NCBI GenBank assembly: GCA_041649615.1
Contig: JBAZMT010000001.1
Coordinates: 90,981-154,980 of the forward strand
Direction of reading: 5' to 3'
Length of the DNA stretch: 64,000 nucleotides
From: Parcubacteria group bacterium
GTDB taxonomy: Bacteria > Patescibacteriota > Minisyncoccia > UBA6257 > Colwellbacteraceae
Part shown: piece after piece, positions 27,116 through 59,046 of the stretch
Layout of the letters: every line of letters starts with the position of its first letter
Position numbering within the stretch: the stretch's first letter is position 1
Position numbers and translations under genes: made by a program
The notes under the pieces: model-generated
Seen by the model: only the letters and a program-made list of their open reading frames with translations
Databases searched by the model: none
Told to the model about the DNA's origin: nothing

Positions 27116-28016
27116 TGGATTTAACGCGTAATTTACCTCGATTCTTCTCTATTTTTACGCCGCCGGTATCATCGGTTCTAAAGACGGGTATTCCCCTATC
27201 GGTAAATTTTTTAATGGTCTCTTCTTTGGGCAAACCATAACTGTTTTGACCCACGCTTATCACGGCGACAAGAGGATTGATGGCGGAGAGAAATCCGTCG
27301 GATGAAGAAGTGGCCGATCCGTGATGAGGAACTTTCAAAAAATCGGTTTCGGGAAAATTAATGGCGGAAATGACCGCTTCCGATTTGCGAGTTATATCGC
27401 CCGGGAACAAGCCATTCAGTTCGCCGATACTCGCAAAAATCACGAGGGATCCATCGTTATCTTTGAGTTTCTCTTCCGGCGTACCTTTCGGAGGATAAAC
27501 TATCTCCAGTTCAAGTAACTTGGTTTTTACCGAACTGCCGGCAAAGAAATTAATAACGGGGATATTTTTATCCCTGGCTTTGTTCAAAACGGCGTTGAAT
27601 TCTTTTTCCGTTTCCGAGCCGCTAGTAATAATGGCGCCGACGTCGTAATCCGATAAAACGTATTCCAGTCCGCCGAAATGGTCGGCATGAGGATGAGAAA
27701 TCACGATAAGATCAATGTAACGATCCGTTTTGGGAATAACGTGAGTGAGCTCGTACAAAACGTTTTTTCTGGGACCGGTATCAATTAACAAATCAATCCC
27801 TTCCGAACGGATAAGACTGCTGTCTCCTTGTCCCACGTCAAGAAAAGAAACGGAAATTTCGTTCTGATTTTTAACCGCTTCGCGAAAAACGAAAATATTA
27901 GAGATAACGAGCAAAAAAATTAATAATCCCGATTTCATAAGAAAGCAATGATTCCGCCAAAATTGAAAAGGGAAAAGCCAGATAATTGGATATAAAAGAA
28001 AGAATGCCGGAAACAA
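27108..28016 (-). CDS. comEC: ComEC C-terminal metallo-beta-lactamase domain protein
   Basis: LDVGQGDSSLI, HPHADHFGG; preceded by hydrophobic anchor. Confidence 0.7.
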   Translation of the reverse strand: MFPAFFLLYPIIWLFPFQFWRNHCFLMKSGLLIFLLVISNIFVFREAVKNQNEISVSFLDVGQGDSSLIRSEGIDLLIDTGPRKNVLYELTHVIPKTDRYIDLIVISHPHADHFGGLEYVLSDYDVGAIITSGSETEKEFNAVLNKARDKNIPVINFFAGSSVKTKLLELEIVYPPKGTPEEKLKDNDGSLVIFASIGELNGLFPGDITRKSEAVISAINFPETDFLKVPHHGSATSSSDGFLSAINPLVAVISVGQNSYGLPKEETIKKFTDRGIPVFRTDDTGGVKIEKNRGKLRVKSID

Positions 28017-29205
28017 AAGAGAAAAACATGGCTAACGGCACCGACCATATAATCATAGCGTTCGGAATAAACGATAACCAATTAAAGCGACCGAATAAAA
28101 TCGGTATTACCGGCGAAACGGCCAATTCGGCGGAAAAACATTCCGTGATAACCGATCCCATGAAACCGATTTCCCTTTCTCTGAAAAATAACTTTTTGAG
28201 ACGCGGAGCGATGAAAACAATGCCGAAAAAAGCGGCAAAAGAAAGAATAAATCCGGCGTCTTCCATAATGATAAAAGGATCGGAGACGACCATTAAAAGA
28301 GCGGCCAGAGCCATCGGCCCTTTGACGCTCACGAGTCTCCCCATATTTTTGGTAAGCATGGCGATCAATCCCATAATGGCGGCACGAACGACGGAGGCCG
28401 AAGGACCGACCAGTAAAACAAAAATGATTATGCCGAGAGTGGCGGCGAAAGGACGCCACTTAACGGGCAATAAGAAAAATATAATCGCAAAGAAAGAAGC
28501 CACTATTGTAATATTAAAACCCGACAAAGCAACGATATGCGTGGTACCCGTAGCACTTAGATCATCCTTGAACTCCGGTGTAAATCCCGATTTGTCGCCA
28601 AAGATGATTCCATCCGCGAGGGCTGAAGAATTAGGAGATAAAATTCTTTTAAAATTTTCCGACATACGCTTGCGGATGGAAAAAAGAGAGCACATAAATC
28701 CTTTGCATTCGTCACCGATTATTTCCGTGTTTTTACAAAAAACGCTGGGTTTCCCTGAAGCCAGTAGGTCCTTTTTGCAATCCAGCGCCAATATATTCCC
28801 GTATTTTAAGTCCTCATAACTTTCCGCCGTAAGGTTCAGTTTTTTACCGTCCGCCAATTTAAGATTAAACTTCACTAATCCGCCGTAATCCGAAGGATAA
28901 GAAATAATTTTTCCTTCTATGTGAAAATTTCCGCTGTCTGGCGGAATAAAACTCGAAGAAAACGATTTATAAAGGAAAGGATAAAGGCAGCCAAGGGCGC
29001 AGGCAAAAAGAAAGAGAGCAACAATCCGGCTGGCTCTCATGAATATCGCAAAAAAAAGAGATAAGATAAGCAGTCCGGCAAAAACGGCGCCCGGATGATC
29101 TATGACGGATGCGATTATCGTACCCGTGCAGAAGCAAATTGCCGACCAAACGAAAACATTCCCCTTCGCCATTTTAAAAAAAATAGCGCTAGAGCATTTG
29201 GGCAA
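27898..29205 (-). CDS. comEC: ComEC/Rec2 membrane (competence) domain protein
   Basis: 435 aa polytopic membrane protein with ComEC competence-domain pattern; overlaps downstream MBL ORF by 119 nt in a different frame. Confidence 0.7.
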   Translation of the reverse strand: MPKCSSAIFFKMAKGNVFVWSAICFCTGTIIASVIDHPGAVFAGLLILSLFFAIFMRASRIVALFLFACALGCLYPFLYKSFSSSFIPPDSGNFHIEGKIISYPSDYGGLVKFNLKLADGKKLNLTAESYEDLKYGNILALDCKKDLLASGKPSVFCKNTEIIGDECKGFMCSLFSIRKRMSENFKRILSPNSSALADGIIFGDKSGFTPEFKDDLSATGTTHIVALSGFNITIVASFFAIIFFLLPVKWRPFAATLGIIIFVLLVGPSASVVRAAIMGLIAMLTKNMGRLVSVKGPMALAALLMVVSDPFIIMEDAGFILSFAAFFGIVFIAPRLKKLFFREREIGFMGSVITECFSAELAVSPVIPILFGRFNWLSFIPNAMIIWSVPLAMFFSFVSGILSFISNYLAFPFSILAESLLSYEIGIINFFARYL

Positions 29206-31390: not shown

Positions 31391-32854
31391 CTATTCGTCG
31401 TTTATTTCGTTCTTTTCCGCCTTGATATCGGATGAAGATTCGTCCGAATGCATTGCTTTGTCAAGAGCGGCGCGAAGATCGTCCATTACCACCTCTCTTT
31501 TCGGTTTTACGGGCCGAAGGATTTTTTCAAGCGGGAGTTCGGTTCTACGCGCGATTCTTTCCTCGGTCTTTTCATTATTGTCTTCCCAACGTTCCATTAT
31601 CTTTTTTTCTATCTGCGCTCTCGGCATACCGTATTTATTCCGACTGGTCTCAATTATCATATCTTTCACCGAATTCTCCCCTTCTCTGTGAGAAAGGAAA
31701 TCAAGATTACGCGCCGAGAAGGGTCTTGAGGCGATGCCGTCTATCATAAGTTTGATGTAAAAATGATGTTTACCCGTGTTTACAAGATCAGTTGCCATAA
31801 ATTCGGGAGAGAATTCTTTTTCCAAAAATTCAGCGTCTTCGGCGCCGACCCTGAAGGCGATGAGCGTACCGACGTTTCCGAAGATGGCTGGACGCACCGT
31901 TTCCGAGAGCTGTTCAATGTATTGATGGGCAAGAATGAGACTTAACCTGTATTTGCGAGCTTCGGAGAGAATGACCGCAAAAGAATCGGTGGAAAAATTT
32001 TGAAATTCGTCTATATAGAGGAAAAAATCCTTTCTTTCAAATTCGGAAGTGTCTATTCGGCTCATGGCCGCTTGCTGAAGTTTCGTGATCAGCATGGCTC
32101 CCAAAAGAGCGGAATTGTCTTCTCCGATTTTTCCGTGAGAAAGATTGGCAATCAAAATTTTTCCGTCATCCATCACGCTTCTCATATTCACGGACGATTT
32201 CGGCTGACCGATGATATTCCTGATTAAAGGATTCGCGATAAACTGACCTACTTTGTTTTGAATGGCGGCAACCGCTTCTGAAGCATATCTGTCCGTATAT
32301 TTGCCGAATTCGTTAAGCCAAAAGTTTTTGACCACCGGATCTTCCAAGATAGCGGTGATTTTTTCCCTGAAACGCTTATCCGTGAGCATTTTCATCACGT
32401 CTAAGAGCGTAGAGTTCGGAAATTCCAAAAGGGCGAGCAAAGTATTGTTCAAGATGTATTCCATTCTCGCCGACCAGGCGTCAACCCATATTTTTTTGAA
32501 AACGCCCATCATGCCGGAAGCGATGAGATGTCTGAAGCTTCCTTCTACGCCTTCAAGCGGATTGAAACCGATCGGGTGATCAATATCCGCCGGATTGAAA
32601 TAGATAACGTCGTCAATGCGTTCCGGAGGAACGAAATCAAGCATTTTTTCCGCAAATTGACCGTGCGGATCAATAAGACCGACTCCTTTGCCGTTTCGGA
32701 TGTCTTCGGCCACCATATTTTCCATCATGGTGGTTTTACCCATACCTGTTTTTCCGATCAGGTACATGTGCCTGCGGCGATCGTCCACCTTAATGCCAAA
32801 GCGTTCTTCCCGATTCCTGAAACTGGTTTTTCCAAAAAAATTAACTTCTTCCAT
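31391..32854 (-). CDS. FtsK/HerA/TraD(VirD4)-superfamily P-loop ATPase without TM segments
   Basis: Walker A IGKTGMGKTT followed ~20 aa later by LIDPHGQF (HerA/TrwB-like DPxG), C-terminal YIDEFQNF and SEARKYRLSLILAHQYIEQL...FRVG (TraG/TraD/HerA C-terminal pattern). Confidence 0.6.
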   Translation of the reverse strand: MEEVNFFGKTSFRNREERFGIKVDDRRRHMYLIGKTGMGKTTMMENMVAEDIRNGKGVGLIDPHGQFAEKMLDFVPPERIDDVIYFNPADIDHPIGFNPLEGVEGSFRHLIASGMMGVFKKIWVDAWSARMEYILNNTLLALLEFPNSTLLDVMKMLTDKRFREKITAILEDPVVKNFWLNEFGKYTDRYASEAVAAIQNKVGQFIANPLIRNIIGQPKSSVNMRSVMDDGKILIANLSHGKIGEDNSALLGAMLITKLQQAAMSRIDTSEFERKDFFLYIDEFQNFSTDSFAVILSEARKYRLSLILAHQYIEQLSETVRPAIFGNVGTLIAFRVGAEDAEFLEKEFSPEFMATDLVNTGKHHFYIKLMIDGIASRPFSARNLDFLSHREGENSVKDMIIETSRNKYGMPRAQIEKKIMERWEDNNEKTEERIARRTELPLEKILRPVKPKREVVMDDLRAALDKAMHSDESSSDIKAEKNEINDE

Positions 32855-32865
32855 AGGGCTTTAAA

Positions 32866-34161
32866 TTATCCAATAGGCAAATTCGCCGGAGGGGCGCCTT
32901 TCTTTGATTCAAGCTGACCTAGACCCGGAGCCGCAACGCGTCCGATAGGCGGGTGGAAAATGGTCGCGAGTTCTTCCACGTTCATGAGCGAAGGTTCAAG
33001 CGCTTTCTTAAACATTGACTGCACGTTCGTCAAAAGAGAAAGACTTCTTTCAATGTAGCTTTTATATATTTCTTTTTTCTTTCTTAAGATTATTTCTTTT
33101 TTGCGAGGAACGAAAAATCGCGGAGGAATGGTCATAGTGAGAGCGGCCGGACGCATGCCGTTTAGGTTCTGCGTATTGAACTGCTGGAAAGCGCTCATTG
33201 CAGCCTTGAAATTGCTGCCGCTGAAACTATCTTTCTTGTCTATGTAAATTATCCTCGTAATAGTTTCAAAAGCCAGTTTGGACGCTTTAGCGTCTACCGC
33301 TCTGATTATTTCGGCGTCTTGAGCGGAAACGCTTTTGGGTTTTTCTTCGGGTTTGTCACTCCACTCGGGAAGTTTTACGGGCGCCAAAACGGCCTCTCTA
33401 GTAAATTCCAAAAGTCCGCCAACTACGCCTTTCTTTTCTTCTTTCTTTCCGGACTTTTCAGCGATGACTTTTTTAGCCGCTTCTTTCAATTTGTCGCCGG
33501 CCGGACGAACAAGAGTTTGTATCCACATCCGCTCGTCCGATTTCAGACTGGACATTACTTCGGCTAAAATGGCAATCGGATCAACTTCCTGTTCTTCATA
33601 TTTTCTTTCGCCGAAGAAGTAAGGATAGGTTTTCATGGGATAAGCGCTGTCTTTGCCCAAGATCATATCGGCTCCCATAATGTCATACTCCTCATTCGGA
33701 AGATCGGGCGGAAATTCTTTTATGTAATCTTTATCCGCTTCAAATATTTCCGCTCCCGGATATTCGGCGAATATGGCCGATTCCACGAGGGCGCGATTCT
33801 TTTTGTTCGTTCTCAAGAAAAACCTGATGCCTTCTCTTGAAGAAATCATTTCGGCGGAAATCGTTTCTTCAAACTGGCCTTCAAGCCATTTTTTTTCCGG
33901 CTTGATACCGAAACTGTATATCTGATAAAAGCTCGCGAATATTTGTTCCATGGCCTTCGGGAAAGTCTCGTTGTCTTTCGGGAATTTGATCTCCAAAAGG
34001 ATGTATTCTATGCCCGAGGCAAATTTATCCTGCGATTCGTCAAGCCACCAATTTTTGAGAAAAATTATGATAAATCTCAAAACCAAAAAGATGGCGATAA
34101 GCGTCAGCGCTCCCAAGACAATGTCGCCAAAGTACTCCTCTAATCCGGAGAGGAACTCCAT
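32866..34161 (-). CDS. N-terminally membrane-anchored protein of unknown function (431 aa)
   Basis: single predicted TM (IVLGALTLIAIFLVLRFIIIFL) then large soluble domain; no recognisable motifs. Confidence 0.3.
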   Translation of the reverse strand: MEFLSGLEEYFGDIVLGALTLIAIFLVLRFIIIFLKNWWLDESQDKFASGIEYILLEIKFPKDNETFPKAMEQIFASFYQIYSFGIKPEKKWLEGQFEETISAEMISSREGIRFFLRTNKKNRALVESAIFAEYPGAEIFEADKDYIKEFPPDLPNEEYDIMGADMILGKDSAYPMKTYPYFFGERKYEEQEVDPIAILAEVMSSLKSDERMWIQTLVRPAGDKLKEAAKKVIAEKSGKKEEKKGVVGGLLEFTREAVLAPVKLPEWSDKPEEKPKSVSAQDAEIIRAVDAKASKLAFETITRIIYIDKKDSFSGSNFKAAMSAFQQFNTQNLNGMRPAALTMTIPPRFFVPRKKEIILRKKKEIYKSYIERSLSLLTNVQSMFKKALEPSLMNVEELATIFHPPIGRVAAPGLGQLESKKGAPPANLPIG

Positions 34162-37273: not shown

Positions 37274-37350
37274 TAGTCCGTCCAGCGGTTCTCCCGACCC
37301 TCTTGAACGTTCGAGTCCGGATGGGCGGAATCCTTCGCTTCGCGGAGGAT
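37274..37350 (-). repeat. partial copy (copy 4) of tRNA-adjacent conserved repeat, immediately 3' of tRNA-Lys
   Basis: minus-strand ...UUCCGCCCAUCCGGACUCGAACGUUCAAGAGGGUCGGGAGAACC matches 5' ~45 nt of the core seen at 46221, 57935, 58399; preceded by imperfect inverted copy of tRNA-Lys 3' half. Confidence 0.45.
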
Positions 37351-37425
37351 TGGTCCGCCCAGGAGGACTCGAACCTCCAACTTTCTGCTTAAAAGGCAGC
37401 TACTCTACCATTGAGTTATGGGCGG
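37351..37425 (-). tRNA. tRNA-Lys (anticodon UUU), CCA encoded
   Basis: acceptor CCGCCCA/UGGGCGG, anticodon loop CUUUUAA, T-arm GGAGG-UUCGAGU-CCUCC, 3' ACCA. Confidence 0.85.
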
Positions 37426-38519: not shown

Positions 38520-39536
38520 TTATCTCAGTAAAACCACTTCTTTGCTTTTCGGTTCAAAATAAACCTCCGCAAATTTTATCGCAAGGATCAGCTGATAAAT
38601 TAGAAACGATAGTAACGCGACAAGCCATCCCAAGAGCCAGAACGCTCCGCGAACGGCGGTAAAAATAATTATCGTTGCAATGAGAGCCAGATAATTTGAG
38701 GGAATCGTTTCAATGACGTCCTGGAACTTGTCAGTGGCCGCGTTTCTAAAATTTTCCTCAAAGGAAGCGTCAAGATCAATGTTTAATCCGATGTCGTCTC
38801 GAAGCATTGTTTCATAATCCGCAATTTTTTGATCAATTAGTCTCTCTTTCTGGCCTTCCGGCATCAGGGCAAATTCCACGGCGTCCGGTCTTGCAAGGGA
38901 TTGCCTCGCCGAGATCGTCAGAAAATCGCGAAAACTCATATTTAGAGTAAATCCCGGAGCGTAATAACCAATCACGGGCGAGGAAACGGAAATCATCCCT
39001 CTCACAAATCGTTCCGAGAATAAATCTTCCGCTTTAAAATTCCATCCATAGCTTACGGCTATCGCGAGAGCAATAATGGTAAAGGCTCTCGCAAGCACTT
39101 TGCCGGAAAATTTGGTGAAACTTACTCGCAATGAATTATCCAGTTCTCTTTTTCCGCGCCATATTCCTTCCGTAAGAATAATGACGGAGACAGCCGCAAG
39201 AATAATTATGGGGATAAACGGAATTCTGCCGAAAATGAACAAAGGGAGCGCTAAAAGTACGGAAGAAAACAACGAAACCAAAAAAAGAAACTTTCTGGCT
39301 TTAACAAGAACGGGGACGAGAGTGATAAACGAAGCAAAAACGATTCCTGTCACGATAGCGGAGAAGAAAGACCAGGCAAACAAAGCGTAACCGAACAAAA
39401 AAGCGAAAGCCGCGGTAACGGCGATAACCGCGAAAACTTTAATAGGAGAATAATCCGTTTCGGATATTTCTTCGTTACGCCTGGCCGCCTTCTTTGTTTT
39501 CTCCGTTTTCTCCTGAGTCGGAATTGTTTCCGCCAT
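38520..39536 (-). CDS. polytopic membrane protein of unknown function inserted between dnaK and dnaJ
   Basis: 338 aa, ~6 predicted TM helices, no known motifs. Confidence 0.3.
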   Translation of the reverse strand: MAETIPTQEKTEKTKKAARRNEEISETDYSPIKVFAVIAVTAAFAFLFGYALFAWSFFSAIVTGIVFASFITLVPVLVKARKFLFLVSLFSSVLLALPLFIFGRIPFIPIIILAAVSVIILTEGIWRGKRELDNSLRVSFTKFSGKVLARAFTIIALAIAVSYGWNFKAEDLFSERFVRGMISVSSPVIGYYAPGFTLNMSFRDFLTISARQSLARPDAVEFALMPEGQKERLIDQKIADYETMLRDDIGLNIDLDASFEENFRNAATDKFQDVIETIPSNYLALIATIIIFTAVRGAFWLLGWLVALLSFLIYQLILAIKFAEVYFEPKSKEVVLLR

Positions 39537-46082: not shown

Positions 46083-46154
46083 GGCCCTATCGTCTAGTGG
46101 TTAGGACGCCAGGTTCTCATCCTGGTAACAGGGGTTCAACTCCCCTTGGGGCTG
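46083..46154 (+). tRNA. tRNA-Glu (anticodon CUC)
   Basis: acceptor GGCCCUA/UGGGGCU (two G:U pairs), anticodon stem CCAGG/CCUGG, loop UUCUCAU, T-arm AGGGG-UUCAACU-CCCCU; no CCA. Confidence 0.8.
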
Positions 46155-46162
46155 CAGTTTAA

Positions 46163-46196
46163 AAGACTATCCTGATGGTTTTTGGATAGTTTTTTA
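46163..46196 (+). terminator. hairpin plus U-run immediately after tRNA-Glu
   Basis: AAGACUAUCC-UGAUGGUUUUU-GGAUAGUUUUUU. Confidence 0.4.
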
Positions 46197-46211
46197 AAAT
46201 TCAGTTTTTGT

Positions 46212-46347
46212 AAGGGGAATTGAACGTTGAGTGGGGTCGGGAGAACGCTTTAAGCGGTCTCCCGTGTAGGAAGATATTAGAAACCGAGGGTTTCTAAAAC
46301 GGAGCGAGCCTAGAGCGAGCGAGTAGTTCAATTCCCCTTGGGGCTGC
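46212..46347 (+). repeat. tRNA-adjacent conserved structured repeat, copy 1 (14-bp perfect terminal inverted repeat; 3' end duplicates tRNA-Glu 3' end)
   Basis: AAGGGGAATTGAAC...core GAACGUUGAGUGGGGUCGGGAGAACGCUUUAAGCGGUCUCCCGUGUAGGAAGAUAUUAGAAACCGAGGGUUUCUAAA...GTTCAATTCCCCTTGGGGCTGC (21/22 identical to tRNA-Glu 3' end). Confidence 0.6.
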
Positions 46348-57592: not shown

Positions 57593-57603
57593 GAGCGATT
57601 TTG

Positions 57604-57774
57604 TTATTTGCCCGATTCTTTGTGGGCCGTGCGCTTTTTGCAGTGAGCGCAGAACTTTAAAAGATTAAGTTTTCCTTCGGCGGTTTTCTTGTTTTTGCGG
57701 GTGTAATAATTCACCCGTCCGCATTCGGAGCACTTAAGCCTGATTAAATTTTCGGAATATTTGGACTTGGCCAT
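57604..57774 (-). CDS. rpmG: ribosomal protein L33 (56 aa; below ORF-track cutoff, found by manual translation)
   Basis: MAKSKYSENLIRLKCSECGRVNYYTRKNKKTAEGKLNLLKFCAHCKKRTAHKESGK. Confidence 0.75.
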   Translation of the reverse strand: MAKSKYSENLIRLKCSECGRVNYYTRKNKKTAEGKLNLLKFCAHCKKRTAHKESGK

Positions 57775-57851
57775 TCGGAGTTCAATTTAGCTATTTTAGG
57801 CGAATTTTGCAAGATTTAACGTATTTGAGATATTATCGGAAGTGTTAAAGT

Positions 57852-57923
57852 GCCACCTTAGCTCAGCGGCAGAGCAACACTTTTGTAAAGTGTGGGTCCT
57901 CGGTTCAAATCCGAGAGGTGGCT
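57852..57923 (+). tRNA. tRNA-Thr (anticodon UGU)
   Basis: acceptor GCCACCU/AGGUGGC, anticodon loop UUUGUAA, T-arm CUCGG-UUCAAAU-CCGAG, U73. Confidence 0.85.
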
Positions 57924-57925
57924 CA

Positions 57926-58095
57926 CGAGGATTTGAACGTCGAGTGGGGTCGGGAGAACGCTTTAAGCGGTCTCCCGTGTAGGAAGATATTAGAAACCGA
58001 GGGTTTCTAAAGCAAAGCGAATCCGTTTCCGCCAATCGACGGGTAGCGGAAACGGGGGCGGATGAGCGAGCAGTGAAAATCCGAGAGGTGGCTCA
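57926..58095 (+). repeat. tRNA-adjacent conserved structured repeat, copy 2 (3' end duplicates tRNA-Thr 3' end)
   Basis: starts CGAGGAUUUGAAC (revcomp of T-loop GUUCAAAUCC); core 78/80 identical to copy 1; unique 10-bp hairpin CCGUUUCCGC/GCGGAAACGG; ends AAAATCCGAGAGGTGGCTCA (19/20 = tRNA 3' end). Confidence 0.6.
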
Positions 58096-58141
58096 AAATT
58101 CTTGTCATCTTTGCTTAAATACGGCTAAAATGACGAAGCTA

Positions 58142-58213
58142 GCCAAAGTAGTTCAGTGGTAGAACGCCTTCTTGGTAAGAAGGAGGTCGTGGGTCCGATT
58201 CCCACCTTTGGCT
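58142..58213 (+). tRNA. tRNA-Thr (anticodon GGU)
   Basis: acceptor GCCAAAG/CUUUGGC, anticodon loop UUGGUAA, T-arm GUGGG-UCCGAUU-CCCAC. Confidence 0.85.
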
Positions 58214-58273
58214 CAAGGAGCGCTTTGCGATGACGAGTTAGTTTGTTTAAAATAGTAGGCGTTCCGACATTAC

Positions 58274-58359
58274 GCACAGGTGGTAGAGCGGTCAATTACA
58301 ACAGACTGTAAATCTGTCGCCTTCGGGCTACGCAGGTTCGAATCCTGCCCTGTGCACCA
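58274..58359 (+). tRNA. tRNA-Tyr (anticodon GUA), long variable arm with UUCG loop, CCA encoded
   Basis: acceptor GCACAGG/CCUGUGC, anticodon loop CUGUAAA, V-arm GCC-UUCG-GGC, T-arm GCAGG-UUCGAAU-CCUGC, ACCA. Confidence 0.85.
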
Positions 58360-58383
58360 TATCCCGCTTGCGGGATATTTTTG
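58360..58383 (+). terminator. Rho-independent terminator directly after tRNA-Tyr
   Basis: UAUCCCG-CUUG-CGGGAUA-UUUUUG. Confidence 0.5.
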
Positions 58384-58390
58384 TTTAGAA

Positions 58391-58525
58391 GAGGATTCGA
58401 ACGTTCAAGGGGGTCGGGGAAATCTTCTAAAGATTTCCCCGTGTAGGAGAATATTAAGAACCGAGGGTTCTTAAAGAGGAGCAAGTGAAGACGAGTGAGC
58501 AGTGAAATTTCTCCCCTGTGCACCA
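58391..58525 (+). repeat. tRNA-adjacent conserved structured repeat, copy 3 (diverged; 3' end duplicates tRNA-Tyr 3' end incl. CCA)
   Basis: starts GAGGAUUCGAAC (revcomp of T-loop GUUCGAAUCC); core ~75% identical to copies 1/2 with compensatory changes in both hairpins; ends CCCCTGTGCACCA. Confidence 0.6.
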
Positions 58526-58532
58526 AGACCTG

Positions 58533-58578
58533 AAGCCCCTCCCCAGTTTTAATAAAAAACTGGGGAGGGGCTTTTTAT
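58533..58578. terminator. strong hairpin terminator after repeat copy 3
   Basis: AAGCCCCTCCCCAG-TTTTAATAAAAAA-CTGGGGAGGGGCTT then TTTTATT. Confidence 0.55.
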
Positions 58579-58644
58579 TATCTTTTGACCCCTTTGAATA
58601 GAATATGTTATTTAAGAGTTAGGTCTTAAAAAGGAGGAATAATA

Positions 58645-59046
58645 ATGAGTATTAAGCCGATGTCTCTCAAAGACAGGCGAAAAAGCTGCTTGTACCAAGC
58701 CGAACGATGGCTTAAGCTATTGCGTCCCGGTATCCCCAACTATGAAACGGTAGCGGGTTATATACGCGAAGAGATGAAAGAAGGAGGATTTACCCTTTGC
58801 GATCTGGGAATTACCGAAGAAGAATTCAAGGCAATGTGTCTTAAAGGCCGTGAGGCAAAAGCGAGACAGTTATTACACTATCTACGCCGGAGCACTGAAC
58901 GGAGCAGTCTTCATTCCATCATAACCATAGTGGACGGCATTCACGAAGAGGTTCGATTGGGCAAGTTCAATCTTGCCGACATCGGCACGAGTCTGGACGA
59001 GTTAATGTCCTTCATCAACAAGAAAAAAGAAGAGGCCCCCGCTTGA
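58645..59046 (+). CDS. hypothetical protein (133 aa) with canonical SD (AAGGAGG)
   Basis: no recognisable motifs; strong RBS AAAAGGAGGAATAATA-ATG; flanked by terminators. Confidence 0.3.
   Translation: MSIKPMSLKDRRKSCLYQAERWLKLLRPGIPNYETVAGYIREEMKEGGFTLCDLGITEEEFKAMCLKGREAKARQLLHYLRRSTERSSLHSIITIVDGIHEEVRLGKFNLADIGTSLDELMSFINKKKEEAPA

Follow-up and report, generated by a model that had tools for sequence, protein, structure and literature searches.

Four copies of a short repeat lie behind tRNA genes in a 64,000-nucleotide stretch of a Parcubacteria group bacterium genome (assembly GCA_041649615.1, contig JBAZMT010000001.1, positions 90,981 to 154,980 of the forward strand), hereafter the window. 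Each copy is a module of 115–170 nucleotides (nt), or a remnant of one: a structured scaffold framed by a 5′ arm and by a 3′ arm with tail, both related to the tRNA gene that precedes it. A search of the window with the pattern GGATTYGAACGTY....GGGGTCGGG, allowing up to 3 mismatches, matched exactly four sites (c1 to c4) and gave 0 matches over 100 shuffles, which upholds the four-copy family proposed in an initial annotation of this DNA. ARAGORN and Rfam identified seven tRNA genes in the window, and those for tRNA-Val, tRNA-Pro and tRNA-Thr(GGU) were without a module copy. The occupied loci comprise the following features.

46083–46155 (+): tRNA-Glu(CUC), partner of c1 (ARAGORN; Rfam tRNA, 61 bits)
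46156–46213 (+): spacer between tRNA-Glu and c1, with a hairpin and T-run (ctatcc..ggatag tttttt); no sigma-70-like promoter found here by the scan
46214–46347 (+): c1, whole, downstream of tRNA-Glu
46214–46225 (+): c1 5′ arm, GGGGAAUUGAAC, reverse complement of the T-loop and T-stem 3′ strand
46226–46325 (+): c1 scaffold, with joiner J1/2 GUUGAGUGGGGUC, helix P2 at 46239–46263, joiner J2/3 GUGUAGGAAGAUA, helix P3 at 46277–46297, then the variable J3/1
46326–46347 (+): c1 3′ arm and tail, GUUCAAUUCCCC UUGGGGCUGC, repeating tRNA-Glu from G53 to the 3′ end
57852–57924 (+): tRNA-Thr(UGU), partner of c2; promoter-like site at 57807–57836
57929–58095 (+): c2, whole, directly 3′ of tRNA-Thr(UGU)
57929–57938 (+): c2 5′ arm, GGAUUUGAAC, reverse complement of tRNA-Thr nucleotides 53–62
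57939–58072 (+): c2 scaffold, with P2 at 57952–57976, P3 at 57990–58010, then GAGCGAGCA after an extra hairpin
58073–58095 (+): c2 3′ arm, GUGAAAAUCC, and tail, GAGAGGUGGCUCA, repeating tRNA-Thr nucleotides 57–76 (13/13 match)
58274–58359 (+): tRNA-Tyr(GUA), partner of c3; promoter-like site at 58225–58253
58359–58384 (+): intrinsic-terminator-like hairpin and T-run between tRNA-Tyr and c3
58390–58525 (+): c3, whole, downstream of tRNA-Tyr and the terminator-like site
58390–58402 (+): c3 5′ arm, AGAGGAUUCGAAC, whose T-loop part fits tRNA-Tyr
58403–58501 (+): c3 scaffold, with P2 at 58416–58440 and P3 at 58454–58474; covariance-model match of 132.7 bits
58502–58525 (+): c3 3′ arm, GUGAAAUUUCUC, and tail, CCCUGUGCACCA, the tail being the tRNA-Tyr acceptor 3′ strand including CCA (12/13)
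58532–58574 (+): strong terminator-like hairpin at the end of the c3 unit
37351–37425 (−): tRNA-Lys(UUU), partner of the stump c4
37288–37320 (−): c4, a 5′ arm, CCGGACUCGAAC, followed by 21 nt from the start of the core (GUUCAAGAGGGUCGGGAGAAC)

c1 and c2 have the core in common and not the arms. The near-identity of c1 and c2, already noted in the initial annotation, amounts to 2 differing positions across the ~80 nt that they share. In c1, the 5′ arm (46214–46225) pairs perfectly with 46326–46337, giving a 12-bp closing helix in the minimum free energy (MFE) fold, and the 3′ arm and tail show 1 mismatch to tRNA-Glu, in the T-loop, with 13/13 identity over the last 13 nt. The tRNA-Thr(UGU) gene and c2 are separated by 4 nt, with neither terminator nor promoter inside the gap. 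The c2 3′ arm has GA in place of tRNA-Thr U55 C56, and its variable region folds into an additional long hairpin at ~58024–58058. A covariance model trained without c2 scored c1 at 138 bits (match 46210–46347) and recovered c2 at 95.5 bits. For c3, the first 85 nt of the scaffold are identical to a tRNA-Val-linked copy of another genome (L148; loci outside the window are given L numbers). In c4, the 5′ arm reads as tRNA-Lys nucleotides 53–62 in reverse complement, the remaining core and the tail are gone, and secD begins just downstream. This copy had been credited with ~45 nt of the core over a wider interval; it is in fact a 12-nt 5′ arm followed by 21 nt of core (33 nt). The reported lack of coding capacity was borne out by the lack of any open reading frame (ORF) of at least 80 aa in 57593–58644, and the reported terminators on both sides of c3 are present (58359–58378 and 58532–58574).

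The c3 5′ arm carries AGAGG as its T-stem part, which fits the CCUCC T-stem of tRNA-Tyr in related genomes and not the CCUGC of the window. The c3 tail and 5′ arm both suit a CCUCC/GGAGG T-stem, as in the tRNA-Tyr of L168 and L177, and the tRNA-Tyr of the window has GCAGG/CCUGC. It seems that the window tRNA-Tyr changed both T-stem strands after the c3 module was fixed.

The MFE folds of c1 and c2 agree on a scaffold in the form of a three-way junction. The first 10–13 nt pair with a segment near the 3′ end as the closing helix P1, followed by the joiner GUUNNNNGGGGUC, P2, the joiner GUGUAGGARNAUA, P3 with a CGAGG loop, a variable stretch, the P1 3′ strand and an unpaired tail identical to the tRNA acceptor 3′ strand. 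In c3, only P2 and P3 were recovered confidently; the fold did not predict the closing helix, which is weak (z-score −1.4). Compensatory changes had been proposed to preserve two hairpins, and an alignment of 29 copies agrees: 99% of cells in P2 and P3 are paired, and in 11 of the 20 pairs both partners have changed (84 cells). None of 500 shuffles matched this signal, which collapses when the partners are slid by 1–3 columns. G.U pairs outnumber A.C pairs in these helices (10 versus 2), which suggests that the tRNA-sense strand is the one that folds. Even divergent members keep the P3 loop and the joiners GGGGUC and CCGUGNNGGA. The essential scaffold is ~70 nt, and the module in L153 totals 114 nt.

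A module family behind tRNA and tmRNA genes

The family extends well beyond the window. When 185,579 species-representative genomes were scanned, 13 of the 31 loci returned proved to be true copies, all of them in metagenome-assembled genomes of candidate phyla radiation (CPR) bacteria (labels Saccharibacteria, Colwellbacteria, Parcubacteria or unclassified), and several copies were present per genome. A stricter pattern applied to metagenomes gave 42 loci, essentially all true copies. The covariance model R1, built on 29 copies, made 68 matches in 55 contigs, all from CPR bacteria, and with filters off it found c1–c3 and nothing else in the window. In ~40 of ~50 distinct copies a same-strand tRNA gene, or the transfer-messenger RNA (tmRNA) gene in L131, ends 0–70 nt upstream, and a few copies sit 175–210 nt downstream of the tRNA. 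At least 15 tRNA types carry a module (Pro, Ser, Val, Arg, Leu, His, Gln, Tyr, Ala, Gly, Asp, Glu, Thr, Lys and Met), and all modules have one orientation. The initial annotation's description of a conserved, structured, non-coding family placed 3′ of tRNA genes is supported, and the customisation of its ends to each tRNA is statistically strong in ~38 non-redundant copies (0 of 2000 permutations).

At its 3′ end the module repeats the last 13 nt of the tRNA, in most copies without a mismatch (13/13). When no core pattern was used, 44 of the 87 tRNAs in the family contigs had their own 3′ end repeated 125–330 nt downstream, a fraction biased by the choice of loci having one copy and nearer one third when unbiased. 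The proposal that the module ends in a direct copy of the tRNA 3′ end was correct for the tail, and required amendment upstream of it, since most members carry a constant GUGAGAUU before the tRNA-specific part, which runs from C61 on. In general, the 3′ arm repeats the tRNA from the T-loop or T-stem to the 3′ end; the copy begins in the T-loop, at about nucleotides 53–61, in most members, c3 being an exception (~65).

This family-blind signature, a tRNA 3′ end repeated downstream, exposed two further groups. The first consists of divergent members of the original family (family A) with GNRA loops on P2 and P3. The second, family B, has an unrelated scaffold, reading GAAC[GA]CCGGACUG, a hairpin with a CAGCAG loop, GAGGGAGG, GCGACGGCGAG and GGAUUCC in that order, and its 5′ and 3′ arms are of the same tRNA-matched kind. 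The window has no copy of family B, for which Rfam gave no match. The layout of a variable antisense 5′ segment and a constant scaffold, as first described, is real and recurs with an unrelated scaffold. Family B was located at the following sites.

L168, 476–760
L190, 2364–2640
L173, 568–720
L129, 405–600
L178, 100–260
L170, 1036–1200
L172, minus strand, after tRNA-Gly(CCC)

A run of ~100 N lies inside a family B copy after tRNA-Thr(GGU) (L139:2076–2265). We considered deliberate masking; the run is more likely an assembly gap, probably caused by the repeat. Several contigs, including L137, start or end within modules, i.e. the family breaks assemblies.

The family appears to be undescribed. 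The initial annotation had suggested a check against Rfam; Rfam 15 returned only tRNAs and noise for the window copies, at the gathering threshold and even at E ≤ 10 for c2 and c3, and nothing at E ≤ 1 for families A and B in L168. Two specific patterns had zero matches in viral contigs, where a loose 14-base pattern was discarded as giving chance matches only, and BLAST found nothing similar in GenBank phages or PLSDB plasmids. A literature search returned no description of such modules, only general papers on tRNA fragments and unrelated Patescibacteria tRNA introns, which are group I introns at position 35/36 (PMC13011429).

Arm complementarity and a possible strand swap

The 5′ arm was first described as complementary to the T-loop and T-stem of the upstream tRNA. 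This complementarity stands and reaches further, from nucleotides 53 to 67 and at times to 70, including tRNA-specific T-stem sequence (GCCGAG for Pro, ACGGG for His, ACCGG for Gly); in c2 and c3, the T-stem part mismatches the present tRNA. For ~38 non-redundant copies, we calculated arm duplex energies and permuted the pairings. The 5′ arm binds its cognate tRNA with a mean of −13.2 kcal/mol and its own 3′ arm with a mean of −10.6 kcal/mol, compared with −6.3 to −6.7 kcal/mol (standard deviation ~3) for non-cognate tRNAs. The observed fit between the 5′ arm and its own 3′ arm was equalled by 0 of 2000 permutations.

The arm follows the variable T-loop positions 57–60, with GAAC kept opposite G53–C56 (GUUC); where a tRNA has GUCC at 53–56, the arm has GGAC. 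Similarly, at syntenic tRNA-Leu(GAG) loci an ACUC arm accompanies a GAGU T-loop and an AUUU arm an AAAU T-loop. These loci retain the module although the neighbouring proteins are just 37–82% identical between genomes. In family A, the 5′ arm follows the tRNA even though its own 3′ arm reads the constant GUGAGAUU (GAGAUU), so that P1 contains a mismatch opposite nucleotide 59 as well as a tandem G.A. In family B, the arm follows the tRNA although its own 3′ arm is entirely without GUUC. Since the 5′ arm tracks the tRNA where its own 3′ arm differs, we conclude from these sequences that it is matched to the tRNA itself and not merely to its P1 partner strand.

Three known motifs were considered for the arms and scaffolds and rejected. 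A C/D-box-like guide for 2′-O-methylation of C56 (Cm56) was discarded as the putative D′ box (UUGA) is not conserved, a kink-turn as the 3-nt bulge beside the tandem G.A is absent, and a hammerhead-like CUGAUGA in family B as it belongs to a covarying stem.

Signals for expression were also surveyed. Each of the three tRNA genes in the Thr-Thr-Tyr array has a sigma-70-like site 15–45 nt upstream, and the promoter scan found none at c1, c2 or c3. Across loci, such sites were found at 2 of 40 modules versus 11 of 39 tRNAs, in a group of bacteria whose promoters are poorly known, and no module promoter at a fixed distance was found. Terminator-like hairpins commonly follow the module tail. The modules thus look like 3′ extensions of the tRNA transcription unit. 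In this arrangement, c2 would be made constitutively, and c1 and c3 only through terminator read-through.

The region from tRNA start to module tail was folded for 33 loci with RNAfold, which ignores tRNA tertiary structure, modifications and kinetics or co-transcriptional folding. At 25 of the 33 loci, the conformer in which the 5′ arm pairs with the T-arm was predicted to be more stable than the cloverleaf with closed P1, by a mean of ~4 kcal/mol. Among the structures that were printed, this swapped conformer is the unconstrained MFE in c2, c3 and L173 and lies within 0.4 kcal/mol of it for c1. In the swapped fold, the tRNA 5′ acceptor strand pairs with the distal tail. Such folding indicates only that the swap is energetically available.

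We favour, tentatively and with a probability of about 0.4, the reading that the modules are a previously undescribed family of structured RNAs, made as 3′ extensions of tRNA and tmRNA units in CPR bacteria (Patescibacteria), tethered to the tRNA, able to swap strands with it and subject to birth and death. A module would be transcribed by read-through from the tRNA promoter. In a closed state, the two arms would pair as P1, a helix left deliberately imperfect by the tandem G.A at tRNA U55 C56 and the mismatch opposite nucleotide 59. In an open state, the 5′ arm would invade the T-arm and acceptor 3′ strand of the tRNA, and the 3′ arm would take up the 5′ strands of the acceptor and the T-stem so released. 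The scaffold would serve as the handle for a ligand or protein that sets the balance between the two states. Such a tRNA-specific switch, based on strand swapping, would hold, refold or mark the tRNA to which it belongs, working in cis on read-through precursors and perhaps also in trans. Strand swapping alone leaves arrays, stumps and cargo unexplained, and therefore birth-and-death copying was added: the unit from the 5′ arm to GAUUCC would occasionally be copied beside another tRNA, duplicating that tRNA's 3′ end, after which the arms would adapt and old copies decay to stumps.

This proposal has a use for every feature, i.e. the antisense arm, the sense tail, the weakened P1, the conserved junction, the interchangeable scaffolds, the tmRNA locus and the dependence on tRNA transcription, and it needs no missing enzyme. 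Two unrelated scaffolds with one arm architecture also fit a modular design of sensor plus pairing arms. A number of points weigh against it. The anatomy, tRNA association, covariation, complementarity and energetics were read or computed directly, whereas transcription, the RNA ends, the switch and its physiological effect are deduced, and no benefit to the cell was identified. Most copies lie behind an intrinsic terminator, so that action in cis needs read-through, and a real tRNA may never open, given what RNAfold leaves aside. The 5′ arms of L137 and L149 are non-cognate, and P1 is weak in c2 and c3. Quasipalindrome correction between inverted repeats is an established mutational mechanism, and it could keep the arm complementary to the tRNA without any function. 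Finally, stumps, arrays, variable occupancy, cargo and piles of tRNA 3′ fragments resemble the dynamics of selfish elements.

Copying dynamics and rival explanations

In most cases an intrinsic terminator and an AT-rich stretch make up the spacer that separates tRNA from module; some loci, including c2, have only 1–20 nt there, and spacers are similar only between orthologous loci. At about half of the loci the tail goes on to repeat the tRNA's own trailer for 20–150 nt, sometimes into a second 5′ arm, and at the other half similarity ends exactly at the tRNA end; the duplicated segment thus measures 13 to ~150 nt. Two loci of one genome, L137 (His) and L149 (Ser-GCU), have an identical 5′ arm, core and GUGAGAUUCC with different tails, and the arm fits neither tRNA. 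Therefore, the stretch from the 5′ arm up to GAUUCC is at times copied, or converted, from one tRNA locus to another, and the recipient contributes the tail. An earlier suggestion that a miniature element re-templates its ends from the target thus survives for the tail, which is target-derived at birth; for both ends together it is weakened by this pair, in which the 5′ arm travels with the unit. Near-identical scaffolds also occur at Glu/Thr, Val/Tyr, His/Ser and Val/Ser tRNAs.

Several side observations concern the surroundings of modules. At the nested tRNA-Arg(UCG) locus L170:1270–1730, the 5′ half of a tRNA-Arg is followed by a complete second tRNA-Arg, then by a 3′ fragment of another tRNA, a family A module and a further T-arm plus acceptor fragment just before a CCA-adding-enzyme-like gene; this looks like serial replacement at one tRNA. 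Another short repeat (..CUGUCAUUCCNNCGGAGGANGGAAUCCAGGUC..), which forms a hairpin and possibly represents a CPR repeat family of its own, is found adjoining or interrupting modules in L153 (after the module) and L172:7770–7900. GC-rich, G-run-rich non-coding stretches lie beside modules at L159:2080–2540 and L187:800–900, in otherwise AT-rich intergenic DNA, and one of them truncates a module.

The strongest competitor, in our view only somewhat less probable and, like the favoured reading, in accord with most of the facts, is a non-autonomous mobile mini-element whose insertion site is the T-arm or the 3′ end of a tRNA or tmRNA gene. Its scaffold would be the handle for a recombinase, reverse transcriptase or HUH-type nuclease encoded in trans. 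The 5′ arm would be a guide to the intact target (nucleotides 53–67, spanning the 56/57 junction), as are the exon-binding sites of group II introns or the loops of IS110 bridge RNAs; the distal tRNA tail would represent target sequence that was displaced or duplicated, and co-transcription with a strongly expressed tRNA would supply the RNA. Many features of the family speak for such an element, which accounts naturally for its dynamics. The tRNA 3′ end is duplicated over 13 to ~150 nt, with a complete gene kept upstream, and the targets include tmRNA. Modules form tandem arrays in which proximal units are intact and distal units decayed: a full unit precedes one cut at 30 nt in L187, a divergent A unit a standard one in L168, A precedes B in L173 and B precedes A in L129, and in both L190 and L168 a B unit is followed by a B remnant. 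Truncated remnants retain either the 5′ part (c4, L127 and L187) or the 3′ part (L170 and L178). Occupancy of orthologous arrays varies by genome. In the Thr-Thr-Tyr array it is A, none, A in the window and A, B, A+A in L168; L139 has none after Thr-UGU and B after Thr-GGU, and its tRNA-Tyr lies elsewhere on the opposite strand with a divergent A copy. The Lys-Arg array varies too. Identical units occur at different tRNAs within one genome (L137/L149; compare c1/c2), and two scaffold families follow one target logic. Cargo is bracketed by tRNA and module at ~4 of ~55 loci, ~50 of the 55 having no ORF there; it comprises 2 kb encoding a DUF134 protein and a 362-aa protein in L147, and a common 183-aa protein in L185 and L174. 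The left junction GAAC|G also matches the IS91-type target tetranucleotide, GAAC/GTTC.

The chief difficulty for a mobile element is the missing enzyme. The window genes at 23–64 kb are housekeeping genes (for ribosomal proteins, EF-Ts, TrmD, Tgt, MnmA, aminoacyl-tRNA synthetases, DnaB, DnaK/DnaJ, SecD and PBP2), and no transposase, integrase or reverse transcriptase was found among the ORFs of this region. A tblastn search with the single Xer-like protein across ~400 kb of family loci and the window found only its own locus, L166. None of 503 ORFs from the family loci and the window has a reverse-transcriptase motif (PQG...YxDD), and clustering them for a recurrent neighbour protein gave only synteny of orthologous tRNA loci. 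The cargo proteins are DUF134, UPF0489 and unknowns, without a mobility domain. Furthermore, nothing was found in viral, phage or plasmid collections, the spacers and terminators are locus-specific and not carried between tRNAs, the duplication has no fixed length and all copies share one orientation. A tRNA 3′ part of donor type would wreck a new target tRNA, and the supply of the correct 3′ end is unexplained. The module is also kept at syntenic tRNA-Leu(GAG) loci of genomes whose neighbour proteins have diverged to 37–82% identity. As for direct comparison of empty and filled sites, the flanks at tRNA-Thr(GGU) are too diverged, and exact protein look-up for strain variants gave only a 1.1-kb contig.

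The single Xer-like gene encodes a 300-aa tyrosine recombinase (L166:3192–4094, −), directly downstream of a minimal 114-nt module behind tRNA-Leu(UAG) and followed by rpsO; it is probably the chromosomal Xer. Elsewhere in the window, ORFs with no Pfam match encode 338 aa between dnaK and dnaJ (38520–39536, −) and 133 aa right after the c3 terminator (58645–59046, +). A TrwB/VirD4-like coupling ATPase of 487 aa adjoins a 431-aa protein without a Pfam match (31391–34161, −), and a ComEC-like competence protein is encoded at 27898–29205; the coupling ATPase and ComEC-like genes may form a DNA-uptake or transfer cluster.

A third, rather improbable view takes the module as a self-contained device of guide, catalytic or ligand-binding core and replacement strand that carries out double strand invasion of its cognate tRNA or tRNA gene. 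In its strongest form it would be a natural, tRNA-specific ribozyme for RNA exchange or repair; alternatively, it would be the programmable RNA of a new kind of RNA-guided recombination system in which both strands of the DNA are read. With the 5′ arm on nucleotides 53–67, the 3′ arm would replace the tRNA's own 3′ strand, and in both versions there would be several interchangeable scaffolds.

It is more improbable that the modules are scars of integrase-driven islands or prophages, in which attL/attR duplication of the tRNA 3′ end was followed by deletions that left an attR-proximal piece. Partial duplication of tRNA genes upon integration of mobile elements is well documented (PMC9897764), and the direct repeats, the use of tmRNA, the fragment arrays and the rare cargo fit. 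The att-like duplication noted initially is indeed real and extends to the tmRNA gene. Independent deletions, however, would not leave the same exactly bordered 115–170-nt piece behind at least 15 tRNA species, nor one with RNA-type covariation and conserved joiners. One integrase specificity does not allow near-identical scaffolds at different tRNAs, and the 5′ arm is an inverted tRNA-matched segment ~100 nt from attR, not an adjacent core-type site. Integrases are also absent nearby; the window has none and ~400 kb of family loci yielded one integrase-like gene, which sustains the initial judgement that a classical integrase does not fit.

Less credible still is a folded single-stranded-DNA recombination site like integron attC or CTX-phage attP(+), in which P1 would rebuild the tRNA-gene duplex with an unpaired centre for Xer-like single-strand exchange and the cargo would be cassettes. 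P1 does reproduce tRNA-gene nucleotides 53–67 as a duplex with a 2-nt mismatch at 55–56, and stem structure is conserved more than sequence. attC sites span 57–141 nt, and the module, at ~115–170 nt, overlaps or slightly exceeds this range; a few loci have cargo between tRNA and module, and one has a Xer-like gene beside the module (L166). The module ends nevertheless read YGAAC/GUGAR and not the attC R″/R′ consensus RYYYAAC/GTTRRRY, and its joiners are strongly conserved, unlike those of attC. The excess of G.U over A.C pairs favours RNA, cargo is limited to the ~4 loci, no IntI-like gene was found, and the L166 gene beside rpsO looks chromosomal.

The poorest candidate is a ribozyme or intron with guide, catalytic core and '3′ exon', as in a trans-splicing ribozyme, that would cleave and ligate in the T-loop to exchange the tRNA 3′ segment or excise the stretch between 3′ copies: the 5′ arm does cover both sides of the 56/57 junction like a joint P1 and P10 guide, the tRNA-derived copy starts in the T-loop in most copies of both scaffold families, the junction is compact with conserved unpaired nucleotides, and scaffolds of different kinds group together in arrays, a habit also known from unrelated self-cleaving ribozymes, but no ribozyme or intron model in Rfam 15 matches even at E ≤ 10, the ~70-nt essential scaffold is far below the size of a group I core, the tRNA upstream is whole already and has no need of splicing, and the junction drifts (53, 57, 61 or 65) as for homology-driven rather than chemical precision. 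Overall, the observations of the initial annotation were confirmed and generalised, and its interpretation, which set three mechanisms side by side, is partly supported.

If the modules are functional RNAs, these would be the first tRNA genes with their own sequence-matched structured partner RNA, and the very reduced CPR bacteria would have a new level at which tRNAs or their quality are controlled. There would also be two new RNA folds with conserved junctions, inviting a search for ligands, proteins or catalysis. If they are mobile, they would form a protein-less class of element that finds the universal T-arm by a built-in guide, with relevance to programmable targeting. In either case, modules explain a large part of what appears in CPR assemblies as 'tRNA fragments' or as contig breaks, and the repetition of the last 13 nt of a tRNA 125–330 nt downstream provides an annotation signature.

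Comparison with known systems

Duplication of a tRNA 3′ end is a hallmark of integrative elements (PMC9897764). Like elements integrated at tRNA or tmRNA genes, the module loci have a complete tRNA gene, an insert and a direct copy running from the T-loop to the 3′ end, and they share the use of tmRNA, serial arrays, fragment piles and occasional cargo. Unlike them, the insert is only ~115–300 bp and without an integrase, near-identical inserts serve many tRNAs, the RNA covaries and a tRNA-matched arm is inverted. Of the features of a classical island or prophage, the direct repeats of the 3′ segment are present, and an integrase inside and a single tRNA target are not.

Guide RNAs (the 5′ guides of IscB and Cas9, and the 3′ guides of TnpB omega-RNA and Cas12) likewise join a variable, target-matched segment to a conserved scaffold, and the module half made of scaffold and 3′ tail resembles a TnpB or Cas12 guide. 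In type V-K CRISPR transposons, the delocalised tRNA-matching homing crRNA similarly lies downstream of a tRNA and carries a copy of its 3′ end. The modules differ in that the neighbours are housekeeping genes, with no adjacent or in-window nuclease or transposase gene and no CRISPR-type tandem array of units seen, and that the 5′ antisense and 3′ sense arms pair together; with an intact target few nucleotides upstream, such a guide would be self-targeting. Guide-RNA scaffold models such as HEARO gave no match in Rfam 15. The bridge (seek) RNAs of IS110/IS1111 elements are comparable as ~150–200-nt RNAs with segments complementary to both strands of the target DNA, encoded at an element end by the flank. 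In contrast to these, the modules have no DEDD recombinase gene nearby, their guides form a closing helix and not internal loops, P2 and P3 are plain hairpins and the duplication is 13–150 nt.

Among structured RNAs, riboswitches and T-boxes also have a conserved junction closed by a P1 with an alternative partner and place various sensor folds on one platform, and T-boxes pair with tRNAs. The modules, however, lie 3′ of an RNA gene and not 5′ of an mRNA, they have the tRNA itself as alternative partner, and there is no known ligand and no Rfam match. Models of known ribozymes and riboswitches gave no match (E ≤ 10 for c2 and c3; E ≤ 1 for A and B in L168). Group I introns differ likewise, with no match to Intron_gpI, a scaffold of ~70 nt and a complete upstream tRNA. 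Integron attC boxes are missing from the module ends (..YGAAC and GUGAR/GUUCR), a motif scan of the 503 ORFs detected no adjacent reverse-transcriptase gene of the kind that a retron would have, and ARAGORN and Rfam call tRNAs only in the upstream genes, never in the module.

Repeats like MITEs (miniature transposable elements with inverted repeats), such as Correia, ERIC, RUP and RPE, are also short, non-coding and multi-copy, are transcribed with their neighbours, have terminal inverted complementarity and undergo birth and death. Unlike these, the modules have target-derived ends, are branched with conserved joiners and occur only behind tRNA or tmRNA genes in one orientation. Instead of the constant terminal inverted repeats and fixed short duplication of a MITE, they have arms that vary with the tRNA and a duplication of 13 to ~150 nt. 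With each known class that was compared failing at least one defining feature, we file the modules as a new kind of element.

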